Shown piece after piece: positions 25,930 through 51,635 of a stretch of DNA of 64,000 nt. Position 1 is the first letter of the stretch; the number at the start of each line of letters is the position of its first letter. A program made the position numbers and the translations under genes. Under the pieces are notes generated by a model. The model was given only the letters and a program-made list of their open reading frames with translations, had not been told where the DNA came from and did not search any database. The DNA is from Shigella phage SSG23, in the sequence record PQ351811. One strand, 5' to 3'.

Positions 25930-26688
25930 ATGAAAAACATTATCGCTGCTATCGTTCTTTCTGCTACTGCTTTCGGTGCTAATGCTGCGTCCTTTGATTG
26001 CACTAAGGCTACTACCAAATCAGAGAAGTTTATTTGTGCTAATGAGTCAATCTCCGCACTGGATTCTAAACTTCATGAAGTATATGTTAAGGCCGTTAAG
26101 ATTGATCCGTCTCTGAAACAAGAGCAACGTAACTGGAATAAAACTGTTCGTGATACTATGATCAATATCGGGCAGATTCAGCCACTGGAGGCTGTATATA
26201 ACGCTCAAATCCAAAACTTGATGAATGTATTACCTAAAGAAGAAACAGCGTCAGAAAGCGATTCAGAGACTTCTGCGAAGGTTGAAAAAGAACAACCGAA
26301 ACAGGAAGCAAAAGTGGTAGAAGAACCGAAGGTTGAAACTTTTACTTATCAATGCAACATTCGCTATGAGTGGAGTATTAAAGATGGAATTTCCACCAAA
26401 ATTAAAGAAGCGCCACTGTATGCCAAATATGGAAATCAACCAGGAGATCTTCAAGTAACAATTAAAAATGGGGAAATGGTCGATTTTGTATACATTGATG
26501 AATACAACGTACACAAAGCAAACGTACAAGAAACCGTTATGACTAAAGGCGGGTTTTATAAAAATGTTGGCAAGAAAGATCTATATGAATACTCCGTTTT
26601 CGAACCAAACGACGGAACTATTCGATTTGAAAAACGTCATCCTACATTCGGTGGCGCAATTGATGTAGATCAATACGTTTGCAAGTAA
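25930..26688 (+). CDS. secreted protein with DUF1311/LprI-like (lysozyme-inhibitor family) N-terminal domain
   Basis: 252 aa; signal peptide MKNIIAAIVLSATAFGANA; FDCTKATTKSEKFICANESISALDSKLHEVY...QEQRNWNKTVRD fits DUF1311 pattern as recalled. Confidence 0.45.
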   Translation: MKNIIAAIVLSATAFGANAASFDCTKATTKSEKFICANESISALDSKLHEVYVKAVKIDPSLKQEQRNWNKTVRDTMINIGQIQPLEAVYNAQIQNLMNVLPKEETASESDSETSAKVEKEQPKQEAKVVEEPKVETFTYQCNIRYEWSIKDGISTKIKEAPLYAKYGNQPGDLQVTIKNGEMVDFVYIDEYNVHKANVQETVMTKGGFYKNVGKKDLYEYSVFEPNDGTIRFEKRHPTFGGAIDVDQYVCK

Positions 26689-28968: not shown

Positions 28969-29625
28969 TTATCTAATCCTTCCGAGGATTCTGGCAGATT
29001 GATTACAAAGAGTATCTAAATTCTCGATATCAATATCTGGTTTATTCTTCCATGCAATGGCAATACTACCAGAATAGACATTATCGAGATTGAATATAGG
29101 ACAAGAATACATGAATCCTATATCGATATTCTCTAATTTTTTCTCCCTCGATGGAATATACTGGAAATCTTTATCGGTAAAATAGGATTTACCTAAAAGA
29201 TGCCTACGATATTCTTCACTCGTTTTATTGATAGGGAATCCGCCTAAATTCTTTTCATCGATTGTATGCGGTAGCTTTCCTTCATATGCCACCAAATCAA
29301 CAAAATAGTTTAGGTTTTTCGGACGAAAACTAAAAACAGCAGAAAAATCGGCATCAGCCGACACATGAACTATCTGTAACTGCTCCTGTGCTGCATTATC
29401 AAAATTGCGGTCTTTCTCTACCTGGAGAACGTGAGCATAAGTCTCATAACGAGTCTCTTTATACAAAGCAAACAACTCGTTTTTGCTATAAACGACAAAT
29501 GCTAATATGGACAACACGACGGCAGCAAAAACACGAAGTACGAGCAACTCCGTGCTTTTAGTTGTGAAAATAGCGCGCAGGACATTTGAGATAGCAAAGT
29601 CTTTCTCTTTTTCAGAAACTTGCAT
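28969..29625 (-). CDS. t: holin T
   Basis: 218 aa; single TM then EQLQIVHVSADADFSAVFSFRPKNLNYFVDLVAYEGKLP and ARILGR match T4 holin T. Confidence 0.85.
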   Translation of the reverse strand: MQVSEKEKDFAISNVLRAIFTTKSTELLVLRVFAAVVLSILAFVVYSKNELFALYKETRYETYAHVLQVEKDRNFDNAAQEQLQIVHVSADADFSAVFSFRPKNLNYFVDLVAYEGKLPHTIDEKNLGGFPINKTSEEYRRHLLGKSYFTDKDFQYIPSREKKLENIDIGFMYSCPIFNLDNVYSGSIAIAWKNKPDIDIENLDTLCNQSARILGRIR

Positions 29626-29658: not shown

Positions 29659-29898
29659 TTATTTAGGTACTTGACTATCACTAGGTTTATCTTGCTCGTT
29701 GCTATCTTCCGACTGATCTTTATTAAACTCCTTATAAAGTTCTTCCACAAAACGGTCATCAATTGGCGTATTGGTATAAGCCGCAAGACGACGAGCGCAA
29801 TAGAAGAAAATTTTAGTGAGCATCTTTTCACTAATTAACTTTGATAATAGTTTCATTCCGAAACTAGACAAAGCACCAATGACGATATTATAGACCAT
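29659..29898 (-). CDS. hypothetical small protein between gene 37 and t (not gp38-like in size)
   Basis: 79 aa, hydrophobic/amphipathic N-terminus, acidic C-terminus. Confidence 0.35.
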   Translation of the reverse strand: MVYNIVIGALSSFGMKLLSKLISEKMLTKIFFYCARRLAAYTNTPIDDRFVEELYKEFNKDQSEDSNEQDKPSDSQVPK

Positions 29899-29940: not shown

Positions 29941-32883
29941 TTAATTCTTTTTAAGTTCCGCTAGTTCAGCTTTAACGGCTTTCAATTCTTCGCTCATTTC
30001 CTGAAACGCCTTAATTAAAAGAGCGTTGACAGCAGAGTTAGAAATTGTTAATATCTCTTCTGGTTTATCTGGATCGCCGACCTTAGAAGTTGTTACGGCT
30101 TCCGGCAATTCTTTTTCAAGATCCTGTGCAATAATACCAACTTCATGAGCAATGACAGTACGGTCAGTTAAAGATTTAACCTTATCGTAGGTGTATACAG
30201 TCAAGCGATTAACTTTATCGGTGGCATTCTCTTTATACTCTTCCTTGTTGATTTTAAGGCGAGCATCAGAACGAATATACACATCGTTAAACGAACCGTT
30301 ACGACCTACCGACATATCACCGGAGGCGTTAAAGTCAAAGTTGGCGTCATGAACGTTTAGGCGAGCTAAAGCATTGGTAATAGTACCACTAGGAACATGT
30401 ACACCCATTGCTGCGATATGATATTTACCCCAATGCGTCGCTTTCCATACGTTATGTGCCGAGTCAACGGATTGAGGACACCCAACCATAAGGCCAGCAG
30501 CACGGTCACGCCAGCTAGCCCAACTACCGCCAGCAACTTCACCACGAATCAGGCCATTACCGCCACCAGTTACAGTACCAGCTTCCAATTGGATCATTTT
30601 ATCTGCAAATTTCCACGTCTGGGCTTGTTTCTGACCACGGAAGCGAATAACACCAGCATCATCGGAATACATCAAACCTAGTTCTAAACCGTCTGGATCT
30701 CTAAACCAGATATGCTTATTACCAGTGCGACGAAATTCAATATCAGCACCGTTCAAAAGAATATTGCCGCCAGTGTGAATTGCTTGAGGCTTAACAGTAC
30801 CGTTGATGGCAAACTCAATTGCAGAAGTACCCGGACCGCCAGGCCGTTGAGTATACCAATGCCAACCACTTTCATCTACACACTCGAAAACCTGTTTACG
30901 GGAACCACTATTACCCCATGCACGAATGTTAAAGCCAGATGTGGCTGTACCCTTGCCCCACGTTAATTTCCCTTCTGTGGTTAAATCCCCTCGGAAGTGA
31001 GCAAGCAATCCACCATCAGCATTACGTTCGGTTGTAAAATGTGTTCCTTTCGTGTCTTCAAATTGTAAAACATTATATCGTCCAGCGTTACTATTCCCCC
31101 AATGGTTAATAGTGAAAGAATCCATCGACTGATTCCCACCCGCAGAGAAAGTAAGCAATCCTTTTTCTAAGAATACATTGTTGCTAAAACGAGCAGCACG
31201 GCTATCTCTTTCGAGAACTAATGCGCCTTCGTTACCATCACCACCTAAAGTAACTTTACCATTTGTCAAATCGTAGATGAATGGTCGGTTGCCGTTCCAT
31301 CCACCAAAACGGTCATTTTCTTCTGTGGAAAGAAGATAAATTTTCGTACCGTCATTACGCCAGAATGCACCGTAATTACCAAAGATCATGCGATATGCAT
31401 CTGAGTTAGCGGAATAGTATTGTCCGTTGGTATATACAATTTTTGTTTTTCCTGTAGTCAAATTTACTTGTCCACTACCTTCCAAATCAAATGAGTTAGC
31501 ACCAACATCATTACGCCACACAAAACCATCACTAGTACCATCCGCATGACCGATATAACCACTACGTTGGTTTTTACCATCACGACGATCCCACCACGCC
31601 ATATAGGCAGCTTGATCAGTCTGGCGATGTAAAGTCATCGCATTACCACTACCGTGCAATTCCATTTTACCAGTAATTACATATCCTTTATAGCTACCAG
31701 GTATAGCACTATTAGAATCAACTCTAAGAACTTCCGTAGAATCTGTAACACCAGTAGCAAGACGATATACAGCACCCTGAACGGTTTCATGCCAAACCAT
31801 TTCATTATAGTTACTACGGAATTTACGAATATATTTCCTACCAGTACCTCTATCATTACTCAAGTGAACAATATCATAGCTATTTTGTGTGTTGTCGTCA
31901 AAACTCAACACACCTCGTTTGTTTTCGGTGTTGAAAAGAGTTACAGCGCGACCGCCAATAACATTATCGCCAGCAGGACGTTCAGCAACAAAATCTGGAA
32001 CGTCATGCACTGTTAAATTAACATCAACACTTTTACCAAATTCAACAATAACGTTATCAGTATAACGCTGATATTTCACATAGATATCATAGTTATCGCC
32101 AGAAGTGTTAACAGCCAAAACATCAAATGATTTGTTTGTATTTCGGCGATATGCAATAACGTTAACACCTTTAGGGCGATTATTTCCACTACGAATAACA
32201 ATTTCTACAATATCAACTTGATCGTATGCAGTAACGTTATATCCGTTGCCGCCATGAATACGGAAAAATACGCTACGCCCATTTTGTGGAATCATTGCAG
32301 TTGCTAATTTAAAATAGCCTTCAACGGTATCAACAGGAACTGTAGCAAGTTTAACGTTCTTAACAAACATTCTATCTACTTCTTGTTTGCTATAAACGTT
32401 CAATTCTCCTGGAGTTGGCTTATCACCTTCGTGATACATGCGGTAACTGAATCTCTTGTTGCCATCCTTATCAAAACCATAGGTTTTAACCTGAGAGGAA
32501 CTAGAACCATATTGAAATTCAAACCCGCGACCGTGTGCTTTACCGTTAGAATGAGGAATGTTCAGAATCAAGTTAGACCAACCATCAGCATTATTCGTTC
32601 GAAACGCACCAAATTTGTCAAGGTCGCGAGCGGTTGAATCGTCCATATAGTTAGCGGTTTTACCTAAAATATAGTTGTCGCCGTCAACCTTACCAGCGAA
32701 TCTAACTTGTCGGTCATAAACCGGAGGACAACTTAAATTGATAATAGCACCGGAATCATTTTTAGTAAGAAGATATTGATCCGCAAGGTTGATTGCCAAT
32801 TCCCCCGGATTCATCGTACCAGCATCAGGTCGACGACCTTTAGTGCTAGTGCGTTTAAATTGGATTCTGCTTAAATCTGCCAT
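29941..32883 (-). CDS. 37: long tail fibre distal subunit gp37 with C-terminal intramolecular chaperone (peptidase S74-like) domain
   Basis: 980 aa; N-terminus MADLSRIQFKR...GELAINL matches T4 gp37; C-terminal about 110 aa has SDARLKIN and GIIAQDLEKELPEAV. Confidence 0.8.
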   Translation of the reverse strand: MADLSRIQFKRTSTKGRRPDAGTMNPGELAINLADQYLLTKNDSGAIINLSCPPVYDRQVRFAGKVDGDNYILGKTANYMDDSTARDLDKFGAFRTNNADGWSNLILNIPHSNGKAHGRGFEFQYGSSSSQVKTYGFDKDGNKRFSYRMYHEGDKPTPGELNVYSKQEVDRMFVKNVKLATVPVDTVEGYFKLATAMIPQNGRSVFFRIHGGNGYNVTAYDQVDIVEIVIRSGNNRPKGVNVIAYRRNTNKSFDVLAVNTSGDNYDIYVKYQRYTDNVIVEFGKSVDVNLTVHDVPDFVAERPAGDNVIGGRAVTLFNTENKRGVLSFDDNTQNSYDIVHLSNDRGTGRKYIRKFRSNYNEMVWHETVQGAVYRLATGVTDSTEVLRVDSNSAIPGSYKGYVITGKMELHGSGNAMTLHRQTDQAAYMAWWDRRDGKNQRSGYIGHADGTSDGFVWRNDVGANSFDLEGSGQVNLTTGKTKIVYTNGQYYSANSDAYRMIFGNYGAFWRNDGTKIYLLSTEENDRFGGWNGNRPFIYDLTNGKVTLGGDGNEGALVLERDSRAARFSNNVFLEKGLLTFSAGGNQSMDSFTINHWGNSNAGRYNVLQFEDTKGTHFTTERNADGGLLAHFRGDLTTEGKLTWGKGTATSGFNIRAWGNSGSRKQVFECVDESGWHWYTQRPGGPGTSAIEFAINGTVKPQAIHTGGNILLNGADIEFRRTGNKHIWFRDPDGLELGLMYSDDAGVIRFRGQKQAQTWKFADKMIQLEAGTVTGGGNGLIRGEVAGGSWASWRDRAAGLMVGCPQSVDSAHNVWKATHWGKYHIAAMGVHVPSGTITNALARLNVHDANFDFNASGDMSVGRNGSFNDVYIRSDARLKINKEEYKENATDKVNRLTVYTYDKVKSLTDRTVIAHEVGIIAQDLEKELPEAVTTSKVGDPDKPEEILTISNSAVNALLIKAFQEMSEELKAVKAELAELKKN

Positions 32884-32953: not shown

Positions 32954-34444
32954 TTAGAAAGTACCAAAATCAATCACCGCATTAAGTGGAACCGCGCCAA
33001 CCTCTGCGGGTGTCGGTTTATGGCCTTCGTGGTAAAGTTCATAGCGATCTGTGTCTTGAGTATTTCCACGCGCTTTAATGAAAACAGCTTTAGAATCGTG
33101 TGTAATACCCAATTTTTCGGTGGCTTTGATATCGCTGATACGGTGAATCATAGCCGTGCCATCGGCACTATTTAACCCAGCATAGTAGTTATCACCGTTA
33201 TATGCACCTCTAGCCGTTTTAACGCCATTTGCAGCCGGAACAGTTAACGGTCCTGTCATGGTGTCGCCAGTTACGTTAACATAGCGAATATCGGCTAATT
33301 TACGGTGATCTACATAGTTCCATGCAGTCCACGATTCATTAGAACAGGAACGCCAGCACATCGGATGGTCAATAGATTCAGGATAATACACCTGAACAAT
33401 TCGACGAGTACCGACCGCATCTTCTGGGCGGTATACCATCAAAACGCCGTTATAATAGCTATCAGACGGTTTATTAGTACCTGATCCAGCATTTTCCACA
33501 CGATAGATACCGCGATTAATAAGAGTGTTCCAATCAACGTTTCCAATGATGGTTGGATTTGCTACCATTGATTTTTTCTCAAAGTAGCTCAAACGAACCA
33601 ATTCATTAGGACCAGCAGGATCGTTTGTCGCCAACATTCTAGGCGCTTGCAAGTTACCTTCCATAATATCACCAGCACGTTTAACCTGTGCATCATTGGT
33701 GACATTACCTAGACCAACATCGGCTTTAGTTGGTTTATTGTTGGTGTGATAAAAACGACCTTCTTTGCCATTAACAAAAATGGTAGGCTCATCTTTACTT
33801 CGGAATACCAACGTATCAAGAACGTTACCATAATAGATTTTAGTGGCATCAAAATTAATTAAATCACGTCCCCTTGCAATTAATTTCGAATCAACCGATA
33901 ATTTAACTGTGACAGTGTTTAAATTATATGTTCCTGAGAGAGTATCACCGCGACGGGAGACTAAATCCAAATCATTATTCGTCGGTTTATTGACAGGGCT
34001 ATAGACGCGCTGACCTGTGTCTTTAATGGTTGTCCCTTCGATAGTCCCTTTAGACTTAAATTCGCCCGTTGTGGTGTCAATATAAGCCATGATAACACCA
34101 TCACGGGCATTAACAAAGCCGATTGACTTCCATGAATGCAAACCCCAGCTTACACCGTCAAAATTAGCGGCATCGCTCTGTCCTTTAAAAATACCGTTCT
34201 TTTTGGTTTCCCCAGCCGATGCACTACCTACGCTTAAACCTTCCTCAAAATGAACTTGCTTTTGAAATGTACCACCCTCGGATGCACTAACAGCATCAAA
34301 ATCGGTAGCCGAAGGTCTATCAAAAGCGGTATAGATTTTATGACCTTTGTAGAAAAGCTGATCTCCCGCTGGCTGGATCGTCAAGTTTCCTTGCGTCCAA
34401 ATGGGAGATCCGCCTACAGTAGATCCATGTTTCAAATCTGCCAT
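32954..34444 (-). CDS. 36: long tail fibre hinge subunit gp36 (enlarged, 496 aa)
   Basis: N-terminus MADLKHGSTVGGSPIWTQGNLTIQPAGD matches T4 gp36 (MADLKVGSTTGGSVIWHQGNF...); much longer than T4 gp36. Confidence 0.7.
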   Translation of the reverse strand: MADLKHGSTVGGSPIWTQGNLTIQPAGDQLFYKGHKIYTAFDRPSATDFDAVSASEGGTFQKQVHFEEGLSVGSASAGETKKNGIFKGQSDAANFDGVSWGLHSWKSIGFVNARDGVIMAYIDTTTGEFKSKGTIEGTTIKDTGQRVYSPVNKPTNNDLDLVSRRGDTLSGTYNLNTVTVKLSVDSKLIARGRDLINFDATKIYYGNVLDTLVFRSKDEPTIFVNGKEGRFYHTNNKPTKADVGLGNVTNDAQVKRAGDIMEGNLQAPRMLATNDPAGPNELVRLSYFEKKSMVANPTIIGNVDWNTLINRGIYRVENAGSGTNKPSDSYYNGVLMVYRPEDAVGTRRIVQVYYPESIDHPMCWRSCSNESWTAWNYVDHRKLADIRYVNVTGDTMTGPLTVPAANGVKTARGAYNGDNYYAGLNSADGTAMIHRISDIKATEKLGITHDSKAVFIKARGNTQDTDRYELYHEGHKPTPAEVGAVPLNAVIDFGTF

Positions 34445-35819: not shown

Positions 35820-38800
35820 TTAGTCTTCCCAGATAAAGTCTACGGTACGAGTCAGATTATTGGCGATGATTTTAACATTACCAACTTTGATCCAATCACG
35901 AACCGTCATAGAGTTCATTAAACCACCTTCCGCAACCACTGCCCCGATTTCCTGAGCGGTAGGCTTATTCTGTTTGGTGTAAATTTCACCCCAGGCGGTC
36001 CATTGACCACCAGTACCGGAACGGATATAATGTTTATGAGTACCATCAGGGGACCAAAGCTGGGTAAGCCCGTCCTCGTCAGTGCCCCATTGCATCAGAG
36101 TACCGTTTTTCTTCTCTGGATAAGTATCTTTGATGTTCTTGGTAGTAACGCGCATATTCCAGAAACCGATATTACCGATTGCCGGAGCGGTTGCCGCGCT
36201 AGCTTCATGCTTAACAGAAACAATAGGCGCATTATCCATAATCAGCTTACCGACCATTGTATCGCCAGCATTCTTAACAAACTGACGGTTAAGAACTTCG
36301 TCAGCGTTTCCTGCGTGTACGATCTGATATTTCTGTCCGGCGATCTCTGTAGTTAACGTTTGATAACCTGCCTTGATGTTAACACTTCCACCGTGACCGA
36401 TATTCAACATACCATCAGGGGAACGAGTCATTGCCGGATTAGACTGGTCAACAATGTATAAACCGCCTTGTTTCGCATACAGGTTACGACCTGCAATAAA
36501 GTCTCGATATGCTGCCGCGTCGCCATTATGTTCCATAGCAAAGGCGTAATGCTCGACAAATCCAGAATCGTTAATCTTACCAAAAGCGATAGCATCACTA
36601 TCAACAACTTGCGCTGTTCCAGTACCACCAACGATAATAGACCATGAGTTTTCCATACCTTCCGATGCGGTTGTGCCGTGCAGAGTAATTCCGGTGTGAC
36701 CGTCAACTCCACGCTCACCCAATACCAGATGACCATTACTCGGATCATCAGTCGAGTTCTTAGTCACAAACAGAGTTTCAAAGGAACCAGATTTTAAGCA
36801 CTCTAAATCGCCCTTCACGTTAACGTTTTTATTAAACGTGTAATTGCTCTCAATGGTCTGGTCAATGTCTCTACGCGCCCATTTAGCGGCCTCTACGTTA
36901 CCCAATTTCAAACTATTCTGAGCGGTTGCCATCTTAGGTAAGAAATTAGCAAGTGCGTAGTTTAATCCTTTAGGGGTAACAGCTATTCCGTCATGCTGGT
37001 AATTTCCTAGTTCTTGAGTAGAACCTTGCAGATTATCACCAACAAAACAGTTTTCCTGAGTAGCAACTTTCAAGAAACCACGACGCGCTTCGGTTGCTTT
37101 CCATGTATCCTCTGTCTGAACAACATATTTGAAGTTCTTCGGAGAAATTGCTACATTGTCCAGTGTACCAGCGACGGTTTCGGCTTGAGTACCAACTCGG
37201 ATAATACCTTCTTTAACTTCGGTGGCCTTTTTGCCTTGCAGCTTTTTAGGGGTAATGATCGTGGCGTCATCTTTTCCCGCATCGGTAAGCTGAGTAGTAG
37301 CAACTTTAGCGACACCTTTTGTATCTTCGGTTGCATCAAGACCGCTGATCATGATACCTTGCCACAAATCACCAGTAAGGTTAAGCCCCTGAGTCGGATC
37401 TACTTTCAAACGCTGTGCATTCTCAAAGAAGGTTTTAATCTTCAATGGGGTAGAAATGCGAGCGTCGTCACGACCTGCGTCAAATTCCGGCTGAGTTGCA
37501 ATTTCTGCTAAACCGTGTAGAGTTTCCGTCGCACGGCGAGTATGCAGCTTTTTAGGCGTGATGATATGGTTATCACTCTGACCTAAGTTTGTTTCTTCCT
37601 GAGTTGCAATTTCAGCGATACCAGTACGCGATTCGGTAGCAGTACGTTTCGTTAGCGTGCGAGTAGTGATCAGCAATGCATCTTGCGGGGTTGATTCTGT
37701 AGCCCCTTGCACTTCCGCGTCAGTTGCCAGATAGCCAACACCACGGGAAGTTTCGGTCGCCTTGACCTCGTTGATGTTTTGTGGTGTAACAATTTTAGCA
37801 TGGTCATTGATGTTATAGATCCCTGTACCAGCTTCGCCACGTCGAGCGGCAGCACGACCGCCTACCTGAACAATTTCAGCAATACCAGCGAGGTCTTCGG
37901 AAGCGCGACGTTCTTCTAATTTCTTAGGAGTAATAGCGCGGGTATCGTCTAAACCTTCATTGGTTTCGTGCTGGGTTGCAATTTCCATCACACCACGACG
38001 GGCTTCGGTAGCAACACAGTCATTTAACTTTTTAGGTGTAACGATAACATCATCCAGGAAGCTGGAACCAGTATCTTGATGCGTTTCCGCCTGAGTAGCA
38101 ATACGAGCAATACCGCGTCGAGTTTCGTTGGCGGTTTTATTAGCCAGCATTTTTGGCGTTACTGCAACTTCGTCGCTAGGATTCTCTTCATGGTTTTTAT
38201 TCGTTTCATTCTGGGTAGCCAGTGCAATTACACCAACACGCTCTTTGCGAGTCGGATCTACTCGTTCTACGATCGGGTGAGCGTGTGCTACCAACCAGTG
38301 TTTCTTACCATCATCACCTTCTGAATAAGAGAACTCCAGATAAGGTACATAATCATTTGCAGCGTTGAACGACAATTCAGACACTTCCTTCCACGTCTCG
38401 GTCCCGTTGAATGGGTACTCGCTACGTTTCGGAAACTGAACCATGTTTTTCTGCATAAGGATTTTTGTATCCTCTGCGGCGGTGATAATACGGCAATTCT
38501 GGTTTCCGTGCATATACTGCATAGAAACTTGGATACGATCACCAGGCTCGACGTTGGTCGGTAGCGTCAGAGTAACATCATGATCACCAAATACAGCAAC
38601 ATAGCTATTAGGTTGCAAGCGAGTGTCATCGATGATCGGTTTAAGACGAACAGACTGATCACCATCCCACACACGCCATAAGTTTTCCGGCTTATCAAAG
38701 ATGAATACACCATGACCGCTACGCTTACCGATAATCTCTTTTAGACCGAACGTGCCGATTGATTGTTCTTCTGCGTGCTCATGGACTTTAACCGTAACGT

Positions 38801-39560
38801 GGTTGGTTGCGGTTAATCCGTCAAGGTCTGTAGTCTGGATCATGTCGCCATTGTTGGCAAACTTAGGAAGCACTAAGGTAATATTACCCAATGAACTACG
38901 ACGAAATACTTGATCACCATTCTGCATTTGAATAGCATCAATTGCTGGCTGTGCGTACACACCGCGCGGCTCTGTTCCCGTCTGATAAACGTGCCAACGA
39001 TTGCGAACAAAGATGAAATAGTTCATTGCATAAGGGGTAGTGCAATGCCATTTTCGGTTATACACATTACCGTTATGATAGAACTCATGCCCTGAACTCA
39101 AGAACGATAATTCGTTAACACCACACTTGCCACCGATATCTTTTACTGTTATAGTGTCTCCCTCTGCTGGTTTATTTGGCATAGAGAAAGTCAAGTTTGC
39201 AAATTGACCATCTGCTGCGATATAATCACCAGACTTTAAAGGAGTATCACCGGAAGTTGCTGCAACATAGTCCCAACGTGGGTCCGTGCGCAGTGCTTGC
39301 CATTTAGTCGGGTCAAAATCACCTGCTGGCTTTGTGATATCTTCTTTTGCATAATACGGGCGGTTTTGATAGATTGTAGTTCCGTATTGATCATAACCGC
39401 GAGTTGTGTCATACTGAGTAATACCATTATGGTAATTGAAAAATTCAACGTTGACCGCATCGGTGTTGACATTCTTATCAGCCAATGCTACATTGACGAC
39501 CTTTTCATTACCAGCGTCAAAGCCAAATGTGGCCTTGAAATGTTGAGAAAAATCTGCCAT
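35820..39560 (-). CDS. 34: long tail fibre proximal subunit gp34
   Basis: 1246 aa; N-terminus and repeated ...ITPKKL.../...TETRRG(I/V)A(E/R)IAT... modules match T4 gp34; C-terminus ...VDFIWED. Confidence 0.9.
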   Translation of the reverse strand: MADFSQHFKATFGFDAGNEKVVNVALADKNVNTDAVNVEFFNYHNGITQYDTTRGYDQYGTTIYQNRPYYAKEDITKPAGDFDPTKWQALRTDPRWDYVAATSGDTPLKSGDYIAADGQFANLTFSMPNKPAEGDTITVKDIGGKCGVNELSFLSSGHEFYHNGNVYNRKWHCTTPYAMNYFIFVRNRWHVYQTGTEPRGVYAQPAIDAIQMQNGDQVFRRSSLGNITLVLPKFANNGDMIQTTDLDGLTATNHVTVKVHEHAEEQSIGTFGLKEIIGKRSGHGVFIFDKPENLWRVWDGDQSVRLKPIIDDTRLQPNSYVAVFGDHDVTLTLPTNVEPGDRIQVSMQYMHGNQNCRIITAAEDTKILMQKNMVQFPKRSEYPFNGTETWKEVSELSFNAANDYVPYLEFSYSEGDDGKKHWLVAHAHPIVERVDPTRKERVGVIALATQNETNKNHEENPSDEVAVTPKMLANKTANETRRGIARIATQAETHQDTGSSFLDDVIVTPKKLNDCVATEARRGVMEIATQHETNEGLDDTRAITPKKLEERRASEDLAGIAEIVQVGGRAAARRGEAGTGIYNINDHAKIVTPQNINEVKATETSRGVGYLATDAEVQGATESTPQDALLITTRTLTKRTATESRTGIAEIATQEETNLGQSDNHIITPKKLHTRRATETLHGLAEIATQPEFDAGRDDARISTPLKIKTFFENAQRLKVDPTQGLNLTGDLWQGIMISGLDATEDTKGVAKVATTQLTDAGKDDATIITPKKLQGKKATEVKEGIIRVGTQAETVAGTLDNVAISPKNFKYVVQTEDTWKATEARRGFLKVATQENCFVGDNLQGSTQELGNYQHDGIAVTPKGLNYALANFLPKMATAQNSLKLGNVEAAKWARRDIDQTIESNYTFNKNVNVKGDLECLKSGSFETLFVTKNSTDDPSNGHLVLGERGVDGHTGITLHGTTASEGMENSWSIIVGGTGTAQVVDSDAIAFGKINDSGFVEHYAFAMEHNGDAAAYRDFIAGRNLYAKQGGLYIVDQSNPAMTRSPDGMLNIGHGGSVNIKAGYQTLTTEIAGQKYQIVHAGNADEVLNRQFVKNAGDTMVGKLIMDNAPIVSVKHEASAATAPAIGNIGFWNMRVTTKNIKDTYPEKKNGTLMQWGTDEDGLTQLWSPDGTHKHYIRSGTGGQWTAWGEIYTKQNKPTAQEIGAVVAEGGLMNSMTVRDWIKVGNVKIIANNLTRTVDFIWED

Positions 39561-39588: not shown

Positions 39589-39596
39589 TATTTATA
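39589..39596 (-). promoter_or_regulatory. T4-type late promoter TATAAATA upstream of gene 34
   Basis: Plus-strand TATTTATA 39589-39596, about 29 nt upstream of start codon at 39560. Confidence 0.6.
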
Positions 39597-50468: not shown

Positions 50469-51635
50469 ATGGGAAATACGGTATTTAATCGTGAACATGT
50501 TGATATTATGAATGAACCGATGTTTCTGGGTAGCGGTTTAGGTATCGCTCGTTATGACATTCAGCGTCATCAAGTATTTGAAGAACTAATTGAAAAATCT
50601 CTGTCATTTTTCTGGCGTCCAGAAGAGATTTCACTTGCAACTGACCGCATTCAATATCTGAATATGGGCGATGTTGAAAAACGTTTCTTTACAGAAAACT
50701 TGAAGTATCAGACATTACTTGATTCTATTCAAGGTCGCGCACCATCCGCAGCATTTGGTCCAATTGTATCTGATCCGACTCTCGATACATGGTTGCAAAC
50801 ATGGACATTCAGCGAGACAATTCATAGCCGCAGTTATACTCACATTATGCGTAACTGTTTCATTGATCCGGCTAGTGAGTTTGACCAGATCATCGATAAC
50901 CCTGCTATCATGAAGCGAGCGGAATCTATCGGGCAATATTATGATGATGTTCTTTATTGGATTCGTAAGTATGAGAATGCAAAAGAAGATCTCCGCTATT
51001 GGGAAGAACGAGACGACCAGACAGCATTAGATGATGCAAGAAGAGTTTTTGAAGATACAAAACGAGATCTGATGGCGTCGATTTATCTGTGTGCACACTG
51101 CGTTAATGCACTGGAAGCAATCCGTTTTTATGTATCCTTTGCATGTACTTTCAGCTTTGCCGAACGTGGTTTACTGGAAGGTAACGCGAAGATCATGAAA
51201 TTTATTGCGCGTGATGAACAACTTCACTTAAAAGGTACACAATACATTATTCGTCAATGGCAAACGGGGGCTGACGGTGATGAGTGGAAACAGATTGCGG
51301 AAGAACTTGAAGACGAAGCAACGAAAATCTTTCTGGATGTTGTCGAGCAAGAAAAAGAATGGGTAGACCACCTATTCGCAATGGGGGCAATTCCTAACCT
51401 GTCACCGGAAATTCTGAAAACCTATGTAGAATACCTGGCAGATTCCCGTATGCGTGCTGCCGGACTGAAAAGCCCGTTTAGTGTTCGTCGTCATCCTTTA
51501 CCGTGGATGCGTAAGTGGTTAAACTCTGACGAAGTTCAAAACGCGGCGCAAGAAGTAGAGATCATGTATCTGGTATCTCAGGTTAATACCGATTTAACAG
51601 ACGACGACTACAACCGATTCGGGAAATATCTATGA
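50469..51635 (+). CDS. nrdB: ribonucleotide reductase small subunit NrdB
   Basis: 388 aa; VDIMNEPMFLGSGLGIARYDIQRHQVFEEL matches T4 NrdB N-terminus; uninterrupted (no intron). Confidence 0.9.
   Translation: MGNTVFNREHVDIMNEPMFLGSGLGIARYDIQRHQVFEELIEKSLSFFWRPEEISLATDRIQYLNMGDVEKRFFTENLKYQTLLDSIQGRAPSAAFGPIVSDPTLDTWLQTWTFSETIHSRSYTHIMRNCFIDPASEFDQIIDNPAIMKRAESIGQYYDDVLYWIRKYENAKEDLRYWEERDDQTALDDARRVFEDTKRDLMASIYLCAHCVNALEAIRFYVSFACTFSFAERGLLEGNAKIMKFIARDEQLHLKGTQYIIRQWQTGADGDEWKQIAEELEDEATKIFLDVVEQEKEWVDHLFAMGAIPNLSPEILKTYVEYLADSRMRAAGLKSPFSVRRHPLPWMRKWLNSDEVQNAAQEVEIMYLVSQVNTDLTDDDYNRFGKYL

Follow-up and report, generated by a model that had tools for sequence, protein, structure and literature searches.

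The distal tail fiber protein gp37 of an RB49-like Shigella phage ends in a Peptidase_S74 intramolecular chaperone

We analyzed a 64-kb stretch of DNA from Shigella phage SSG23 (PQ351811; "the window"), which carries a long tail fiber module on its minus strand. The g37 ORF, taken from the ORF list, occupies positions 29941..32883 (-) and encodes a protein of 980 aa and 108.5 kDa. This product matches PHROG 1699, "long tail fiber protein distal subunit" (E value = 5e-171), and the gene carries the same annotation in record PQ351812.1. The 5.6 kb around g37 matches Shigella phage SFHK24 (PQ351812.1, Straboviridae, Krischvirus) at 100% identity and shares 87-93% DNA identity with RB49, Phi1, and other RB49-like phages. 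Furthermore, positions 1-50000 of the window correspond to positions 76162-126161 of PQ351812.1 with 0 mismatches over the 50 kb compared. Judged by these sequence identities, the phage is an RB49-like Krischvirus. The module contains the following features:

35820..39560, minus strand: g34, 1246 aa
34647..35786, minus strand: g35, 379 aa
34478..34485, minus strand: predicted T4-type late promoter motif TATAAATA upstream of g36-g37, an exact match located 34 nt before the g36 start
32954..34444, minus strand: g36-like distal fiber connector, the upstream partner of gp37, 496 aa (PHROG 16472 and 1425; weak Pfam Phage_T4_gp36 match)
29941..32883, minus strand: g37, long tail fiber distal subunit precursor, 980 aa (ORF; PHROG 1699)
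31273..31608, minus strand: Gp34_trimer-type fiber domain in gp37, aa 426-537 (Pfam PF21446, E value = 3.6e-39; matches the T4 gp34 crystal structures 4uxe and 5nxf)
29659..29898, minus strand: 79-aa ORF in the slot held by g38 in T2 and T6 (PHROG 402, unknown function)
28969..29625, minus strand: holin t, the downstream limit of the fiber module, 218 aa (Pfam Phage_holin_T, E value = 4.9e-61)

One TATAAATA late promoter motif lies just upstream of g36 and one just upstream of g34, in a 64-kb window in which the count of this motif shows no excess over chance. The 79-aa ORF, which we checked as a possible fiber chaperone in the g38 slot, matched no Pfam family. RB49 likewise has a small ORF at this position (Trojet 2011, PMC3157838). 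In Felixounavirus, homologues of the 79-aa ORF lie directly downstream of a gp37-like fiber gene that lacks a Peptidase_S74 (S74) domain.

Next, we looked at the C-terminal end of gp37, for which an initial annotation had proposed an S74-like chaperone marked by the strings SDARLKIN and GIIAQDLEKELPEAV and followed by a helical tail. Positions 29941..30270 hold the final 109 codons of g37 plus the stop codon, and they translate to SDARLKINKEEYKENATDKVNRLTVYTYDKVKSLTDRTVIAHEVGIIAQDLEKELPEAVTTSKVGDPDKPEEILTISNSAVNALLIKAFQEMSEELKAVKAELAELKKN. SDARLKIN corresponds to aa 872-879 (30247..30270) and GIIAQDLEKELPEAV to aa 916-930 (30094..30138), and the C-terminal end is a heptad-like stretch rich in both acidic and basic residues. 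The Pfam search that the annotation had suggested as a check matched Peptidase_S74 (PF13884) to aa 872-931 from end to end of the profile (positions 1-58 of 58, E value = 1.4e-11), with 44.9 bits against a gathering score of 22 bits. The domain thus sits at the extreme C terminus of a protein whose shaft bears the Gp34_trimer domain.

A protein database search with gp37 aa 741-980 returned 42 proteins, all of which (42/42) contain PF13884. In the alignment of these 42 sequences, S872, D873, L876, and K877 are invariant, as is most of the S74 core, and N866, D867, V868, I870, and R871, immediately ahead of the domain, are near-invariant; S872 and K877 are also invariant in an alignment of 27 sequences. 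We used the 42-sequence alignment to build an AlphaFold model of the same segment (aa 741-980) as a monomer (mean pLDDT = 83.5). The model shows a small alpha/beta unit, a beta-hairpin, and a terminal helix of 31 residues, and this single helix (aa 949-979) bears out the helical tail of the initial annotation. By analogy with the T5 and K1F structures, the helix is predicted to form the trimeric coiled-coil core of the chaperone. The 10 best Foldseek hits against the PDB were all chains of three intramolecular chaperone structures, 7dc3, 3gud, and 3gw6, and the match to 7dc3 (the MyRF ICA) had an E value of 4.5e-5 and a TM score of 0.70 on the target.

When the PDB was searched by sequence with full-length gp37, only gp34-like shaft matches were obtained. 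A query trimmed to the C-terminal 179 aa did retrieve the S16 gp37 expression construct 6f45_A, whose intramolecular chaperone part it matches across the cleavage motif (DLNVSSDRRIKK versus DVYIRSDARLKIN). A tblastn search with the 109-aa domain found 1,030 phage records at an E value of ≤1e-3. About 230 of these had 60-80% identity and, among the matches listed, were all T-even-type phages of Escherichia, Shigella, and Yersinia; the domain was also found in T5-like fibers and in streptococcal PblB proteins. The translation, the Pfam match, the invariant serine and lysine, and the fold all confirm the initial identification, and we conclude that the C terminus of gp37 is a Peptidase_S74 intramolecular chaperone domain. 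Its features and those of the predicted cleavage are as follows:

30271..32883, minus strand: predicted mature gp37, aa 1-871, 96.3 kDa, ending ...NDVYIR (from the cleavage sites of S16, fPS [PMC7917993], and T5)
30268..30273, minus strand: predicted scissile bond Arg871-Ser872, codons of R871 and of the putative nucleophile S872 (invariance of S872; analogy with S16 and T5)
29944..30270, minus strand: intramolecular chaperone (IMC, Peptidase_S74) domain, aa 872-980, 12.2 kDa (Pfam core aa 872-931 at 30091..30270; AlphaFold; Foldseek; 6f45_A alignment)
30253..30255, minus strand: Lys877, predicted general base of a Ser-Lys dyad at Ser+5 (invariant in both alignments; spacing as in T5 Ser1264/Lys1269)
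29947..30039, minus strand: C-terminal long helix, aa 949-979 (model residues 209-239; DSSP on the AlphaFold model, pLDDT about 90-95)

To place the cleavage site, we compared gp37 with fibers in which the cut bond has been assigned. In T5 pb1, the bond that is cut is Thr1263-Ser1264, so that the serine departs with the chaperone; the catalytic dyad is Ser1264/Lys1269, and Arg1250 and Asp1239 have been described as fold-sensing residues (PMC4690869). The S16 gp37 site is DLNVS^SDRRIKK, and the site in the fPS Tequatroviruses, assigned by the same approach, is DVYIR^SDGRLKI (PMC7917993). The corresponding NDVYIR^SD of our gp37 is near-invariant across the 42 sequences and matches the fPS motif. 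Because the bond in both S16 and T5 sits N-terminal to the catalytic serine, cleavage would be expected at Arg871^Ser872 and not at the Ser-Asp junction at which the initial annotation had placed it. We infer by analogy that the chaperone would be released autoproteolytically once the gp37 trimer has folded, as in S16, T2/T6, and T5, and that the cut would fall at exactly Arg871^Ser872.

We then turned to the partners of gp37 elsewhere in the genome. Neither g38 nor a gene for gp57A is present within the 64-kb window. In PQ351812.1, a gene at 50572..51351 encodes a 259-aa protein annotated as "tail fiber protein, host specificity," which matches the Pfam families GP38 (PF05268, E value = 2.6e-73) and Gp38_N (the attachment domain, E value = 6e-18), matches S16 gp38 along its entire length (6f45_D, E value = 1e-50), and shows glycine-rich motifs as S16 gp38 does. 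In its N-terminal domain, W7 and W20 are conserved, and the third docking position, a Trp in S16, T2, and RB5, is Tyr35. This g38 falls outside the window, about 55 kb away from g37, and the slot between g37 and t is taken by the 79-aa ORF. A gp57A homologue of 86 aa is encoded at 33506..33766 of PQ351812.1 (PF17594, 27.3 bits versus a cutoff of 27). Since homologues of both gp38 and gp57A occur in PQ351812.1, the phage has both an adhesin and a general fiber chaperone. The suggestion in the initial annotation that gp57A is dispensed with is thus not upheld, nor is its view that the receptor-binding tip is the cleaved end of gp37, given that the genome encodes a gp38 adhesin and that the host-range mutations of RB49 map to gp38 (E230K, PMC9569957). 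The lack of g38 after g37 in the window probably misled that first reading.

The displaced g38 is a known peculiarity of RB49 (PMC3157838), and the displacement concerns gene order, not mechanism. No TATAAATA late promoter was found within 4.5 kb upstream of the displaced gene. A terminator-like hairpin lies on its upstream side, and a second hairpin with a perfect sigma-70 promoter (TTGACA-16-TATAAT) lies on its downstream side. These flanking elements resemble the PeSL shuffling elements of RB49 and phi1 (PMC4122927). Separately, one database hit, from a non-T4-like Escherichia coli phage contig, is a 303-aa protein (P0021) in which the N-terminal half of gp38 is fused to a tip strand of the gp37 type and to an S74 chaperone of its own; its gene directly follows that of a 1140-aa S74-bearing fiber protein.

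It is very probable that gp37 is a precursor with a self-cleaving S74 chaperone and that, once cleaved, it is capped by the distantly encoded gp38 adhesin, as in T2, T6, and S16. In the proposed sequence of events, gp37 would be made as a 980-aa precursor whose final 109 residues serve as the intramolecular chaperone. By analogy with the known systems, three chaperone domains would associate via the C-terminal helix and nucleate the trimeric beta-helical end of the fiber, and correct folding of the trimer would place Ser872 beside Lys877. The Ser872/Lys877 dyad would then cut Arg871-Ser872, allowing the 12-kDa chaperone to leave and exposing the ...NDVYIR tip as the putative docking face for the N-terminal domain of one copy of gp38. 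The gp38 adhesin would be the actual receptor-binding protein. The capping of cleaved gp37 by gp38 is suggested by the homologues and by the literature.

We weighed several other readings of the same data. The cleaved end of gp37 could itself be the receptor-binding tip with no separate adhesin, since the same chaperone family in T5 pb1 leaves behind a self-sufficient receptor-binding domain (PMC4690869) and the usual slot beside g37 holds the 79-aa ORF in place of g38. However, the same genome encodes a complete gp38 adhesin with an N-terminal gp37-attachment domain, the E230K host-range change of RB49 maps to gp38 (PMC9569957), and the tip strand DVYIR is that of the gp38-bearing Tequatroviruses (PMC7917993), so that we regard a T5-like tip as very unlikely. 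Alternatively, the S74 domain could be a noncleaving remnant kept on the mature fiber as a structural C-terminal cap. Our literature search gave no gp37 processing data for SFHK24 or RB49, which would leave room for such a cap, but a remnant would hardly be expected to keep both dyad residues and most of the S74 core invariant across 42 homologues or to match the S74 profile over its whole length, and a chaperone still in place would obstruct the surface to which gp38 docks in S16 (PMC7917993); a retained cap is thus extremely improbable. The presence of a gp57A homologue would also suit a T4-type tip, in which gp37 carries the adhesin at its own C terminus and relies on a separate gp38 chaperone to fold it. 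This last reading has next to no probability, since T4 gp37 has Collar and Phage_fiber domains and no S74, the reverse of our gp37, and the gp38 of this genome belongs to the adhesin family (PF05268) and not to that of the T4 assembly protein; the domain content of gp37 and the adhesin type of gp38 together refute it.

Three observations count against S16-like capping by gp38: the gp37 sequence before the tip strand is unlike that of S16, the third docking Trp of gp38 is replaced by Y35, and g38 stands apart from g37 and lacks a canonical late promoter in the 4.5 kb ahead of it. In Krischvirus, g38 has been relocated to an early-gene region, in a cassette flanked by a terminator and a promoter and without a canonical late promoter, and with the Trp-to-Tyr change at a docking position, the capping of gp37 could conceivably be incomplete or regulated, such that some bare gp37 tips would act as a second receptor-binding surface, e.g., for O antigens. 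We consider this very unlikely. If true, incomplete capping would help to account for reports that RB49-like phages use an unexpectedly broad range of receptors.

Cleavage of the gp37 precursor followed by gp38 capping is the ordinary T2/T6/S16-type maturation of the fiber tip, predicted here for an RB49-like phage, and it is already known from the literature. The chaperone and its cleavage are part of how most T-even-like fibers are normally assembled and add no new biology. The main value of the analysis is a correct annotation, in which the receptor-binding determinant is the distant gp38 and not the end of gp37. Because that determinant is encoded far from g37, gp38 would be missed by any host-range prediction or fiber engineering that looked only at the g37 locus.

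Among known systems, the chaperones of the K1F endosialidase (3GW6), the GA-1 neck appendage (3GUD), and the MyRF ICA (7DC3) have the same fold and made up the 10 best Foldseek hits (probability, 0.90-1.00), although sequence identity is only 8-21% and their passengers are unrelated (a sialidase, an appendage, and a eukaryotic transcription factor, respectively). T5 pb1 belongs to the same Pfam family, likewise has its Lys five residues after the Ser, and ends in a coiled-coil helix; its chaperone is freed once the trimer has folded, as is predicted here. By tblastn, T5-like fiber ends, as distinct from T5 pb1 itself, are 40-46% identical to the 109-residue domain over about 90 residues. The mature T5 tip binds the receptor itself, whereas the cleaved tip here is expected to take up gp38.

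Among the T-even phages, T4 gp37 occupies the same position in the fiber, and both proteins have a Gp34_trimer-type shaft domain. The T4 protein differs in that it ends in a tip of Collar (PF07484) and Phage_fiber (PF03335) domains, has no S74 domain, and needs a separate gp38 (PMC3157838), encoded by the next gene, which is an assembly protein and not an adhesin. In T2 gp37, in contrast, Peptidase_S74 is found at aa 1243-1300 (56.5 bits) and in RB5 gp37 at aa 914-973 (55.5 bits), and in both phages, the next gene encodes a gp38 adhesin. The initial annotation had described a tip architecture different from those of both T4 and T2; because T2 and RB5 gp37 carry S74 and T4 gp37 does not, the contrast holds for T4 only.

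Most T-even phages carry S16-like fibers (PMC6851490), and T2/T6 gp37 is cleaved and capped, with g38 displaced in RB49 (PMC3157838). Like S16 (PDB 6F45), T2, T6, and RB5, the phage has a gp37 that ends in S74 with the motif S-D-x-R-[LI]-K and a gp38 with a conserved N-terminal attachment domain. In those phages, g38 lies between g37 and t, whereas here it is about 55 kb away; in addition, the third gp38 docking residue is Trp in S16 and Tyr here, and gp37 is unlike that of S16 in the part ahead of its last strand. The closest counterparts are RB49 (NC_005066) and the other Krischviruses, which have the same g37 context (g36-g37-small ORF-t) and 87-93% DNA identity over the module. RB49 gp37 has been published as self-cleaving by means of a C-terminal chaperone and then capped by gp38, and the displacement of g38 has been described as well (PMC9569957, PMC3157838). 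There is no difference of substance between RB49 gp37 and the gp37 here, and SFHK24 is another isolate.

The shaft of gp37, the distal long tail fibre subunit, contained two stretches related to gp34, and a g36-like gene and T4-type late promoter motifs were also located in the window, as follows.

31273..31608, minus strand: Gp34_trimer domain, gp37 aa 426-537 (strong match, 134 bits)
About 30745..30939, minus strand: second gp34-like stretch, gp37 aa 649-713, similar to T4 gp34 crystal structures (4uxe, 5nxf)
32954..34444, minus strand: g36-like gene, 496 aa
34478..34485, minus strand: exact T4-type late promoter motif TATAAATA, just 5' of g36
39589..39596, minus strand: exact T4-type late promoter motif TATAAATA, just 5' of g34

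4uxe and 5nxf are crystal structures of the T4 proximal fibre protein gp34. Given the Gp34_trimer domain and the gp34-like stretch in gp37, shaft modules are thus common to the proximal and distal half-fibres. The g36-like product is more than twice as long as T4 gp36 (221 aa, from T4 coordinates) and scored 21.2 bits against Pfam Phage_T4_gp36, below the threshold of 26; its first 40 to 80 residues resemble the N-terminal ends of several PHROG families of gp37 type. Because we found no exact TATAAATA motif in the g36-g37 interval, the sequence suggests that the two genes are cotranscribed. The motif occurs three times in the whole window, which is not above chance.

Two further ORFs were noted.

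29659..29898, minus strand: 79-aa ORF of PHROG 402 (unknown function), in the position of the g38 slot of T2/T6
25930..26688, plus strand: 252-aa ORF, annotated as hypothetical

A Pfam search with the 79-aa ORF returned no family. Its N terminus is weakly hydrophobic (Kyte-Doolittle maximum of 1.45, 19-aa span), and homologues are present in 387 phage records. The position of this family downstream of distal fibre genes recurs; in a Felixounavirus, a homologue lies directly 3' of a gp37_trimer-type fibre gene without an S74 domain. The 252-aa ORF has a signal-peptide-like N terminus (MKNIIAAIVLSATAFGANAASFDC...) and belongs to a block of small early-type ORFs adjoining the fibre module.

Adhesin-related genes were located on two other records.

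L008:2542-6912 (GCA_031535085.1 ABMKHH010000064.1, a non-T4-like E. coli phage contig): 1140-aa fibre gene, then the gene for P0021
L004:10536-11422 (PQ351812.1 50536..51422, outside the window), plus strand: displaced g38 adhesin gene of phage SFHK24 and flanks, with a hairpin on each side and a promoter on one

The 1140-aa fibre has Gp34_trimer and S74 domains. P0021 (303 aa), encoded after it, is a fusion: it carries Gp38_N together with the first half of GP38, as well as a tip strand of gp37 type (NDVYIR|SDRRLKIN) and an S74 chaperone of its own; it is in effect a gp38-like adaptor, predicted to be itself trimerised and cleaved. In Salmonella phage S16, three N-terminal tryptophans of gp38 dock the adhesin into gp37. 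SFHK24 gp38 (L004:10572-11351) keeps two of the three (W7 and W20), and in the alignment the third position is Tyr35 in SFHK24 and Trp in S16, T2, RB5 and P0021.

SFHK24 g38 is on the plus strand and its neighbours are small ORFs of early type; a scan of the 4.5 kb upstream found no late promoter TATAAATA. The upstream flank carries a terminator-like hairpin (GCCCC-loop-GGGGC) and the downstream flank a second hairpin with, after it, a perfect TTGACA-16-TATAAT promoter, an arrangement like that of the PeSL shuffling elements described for RB49 and phi1 (PMC4122927).
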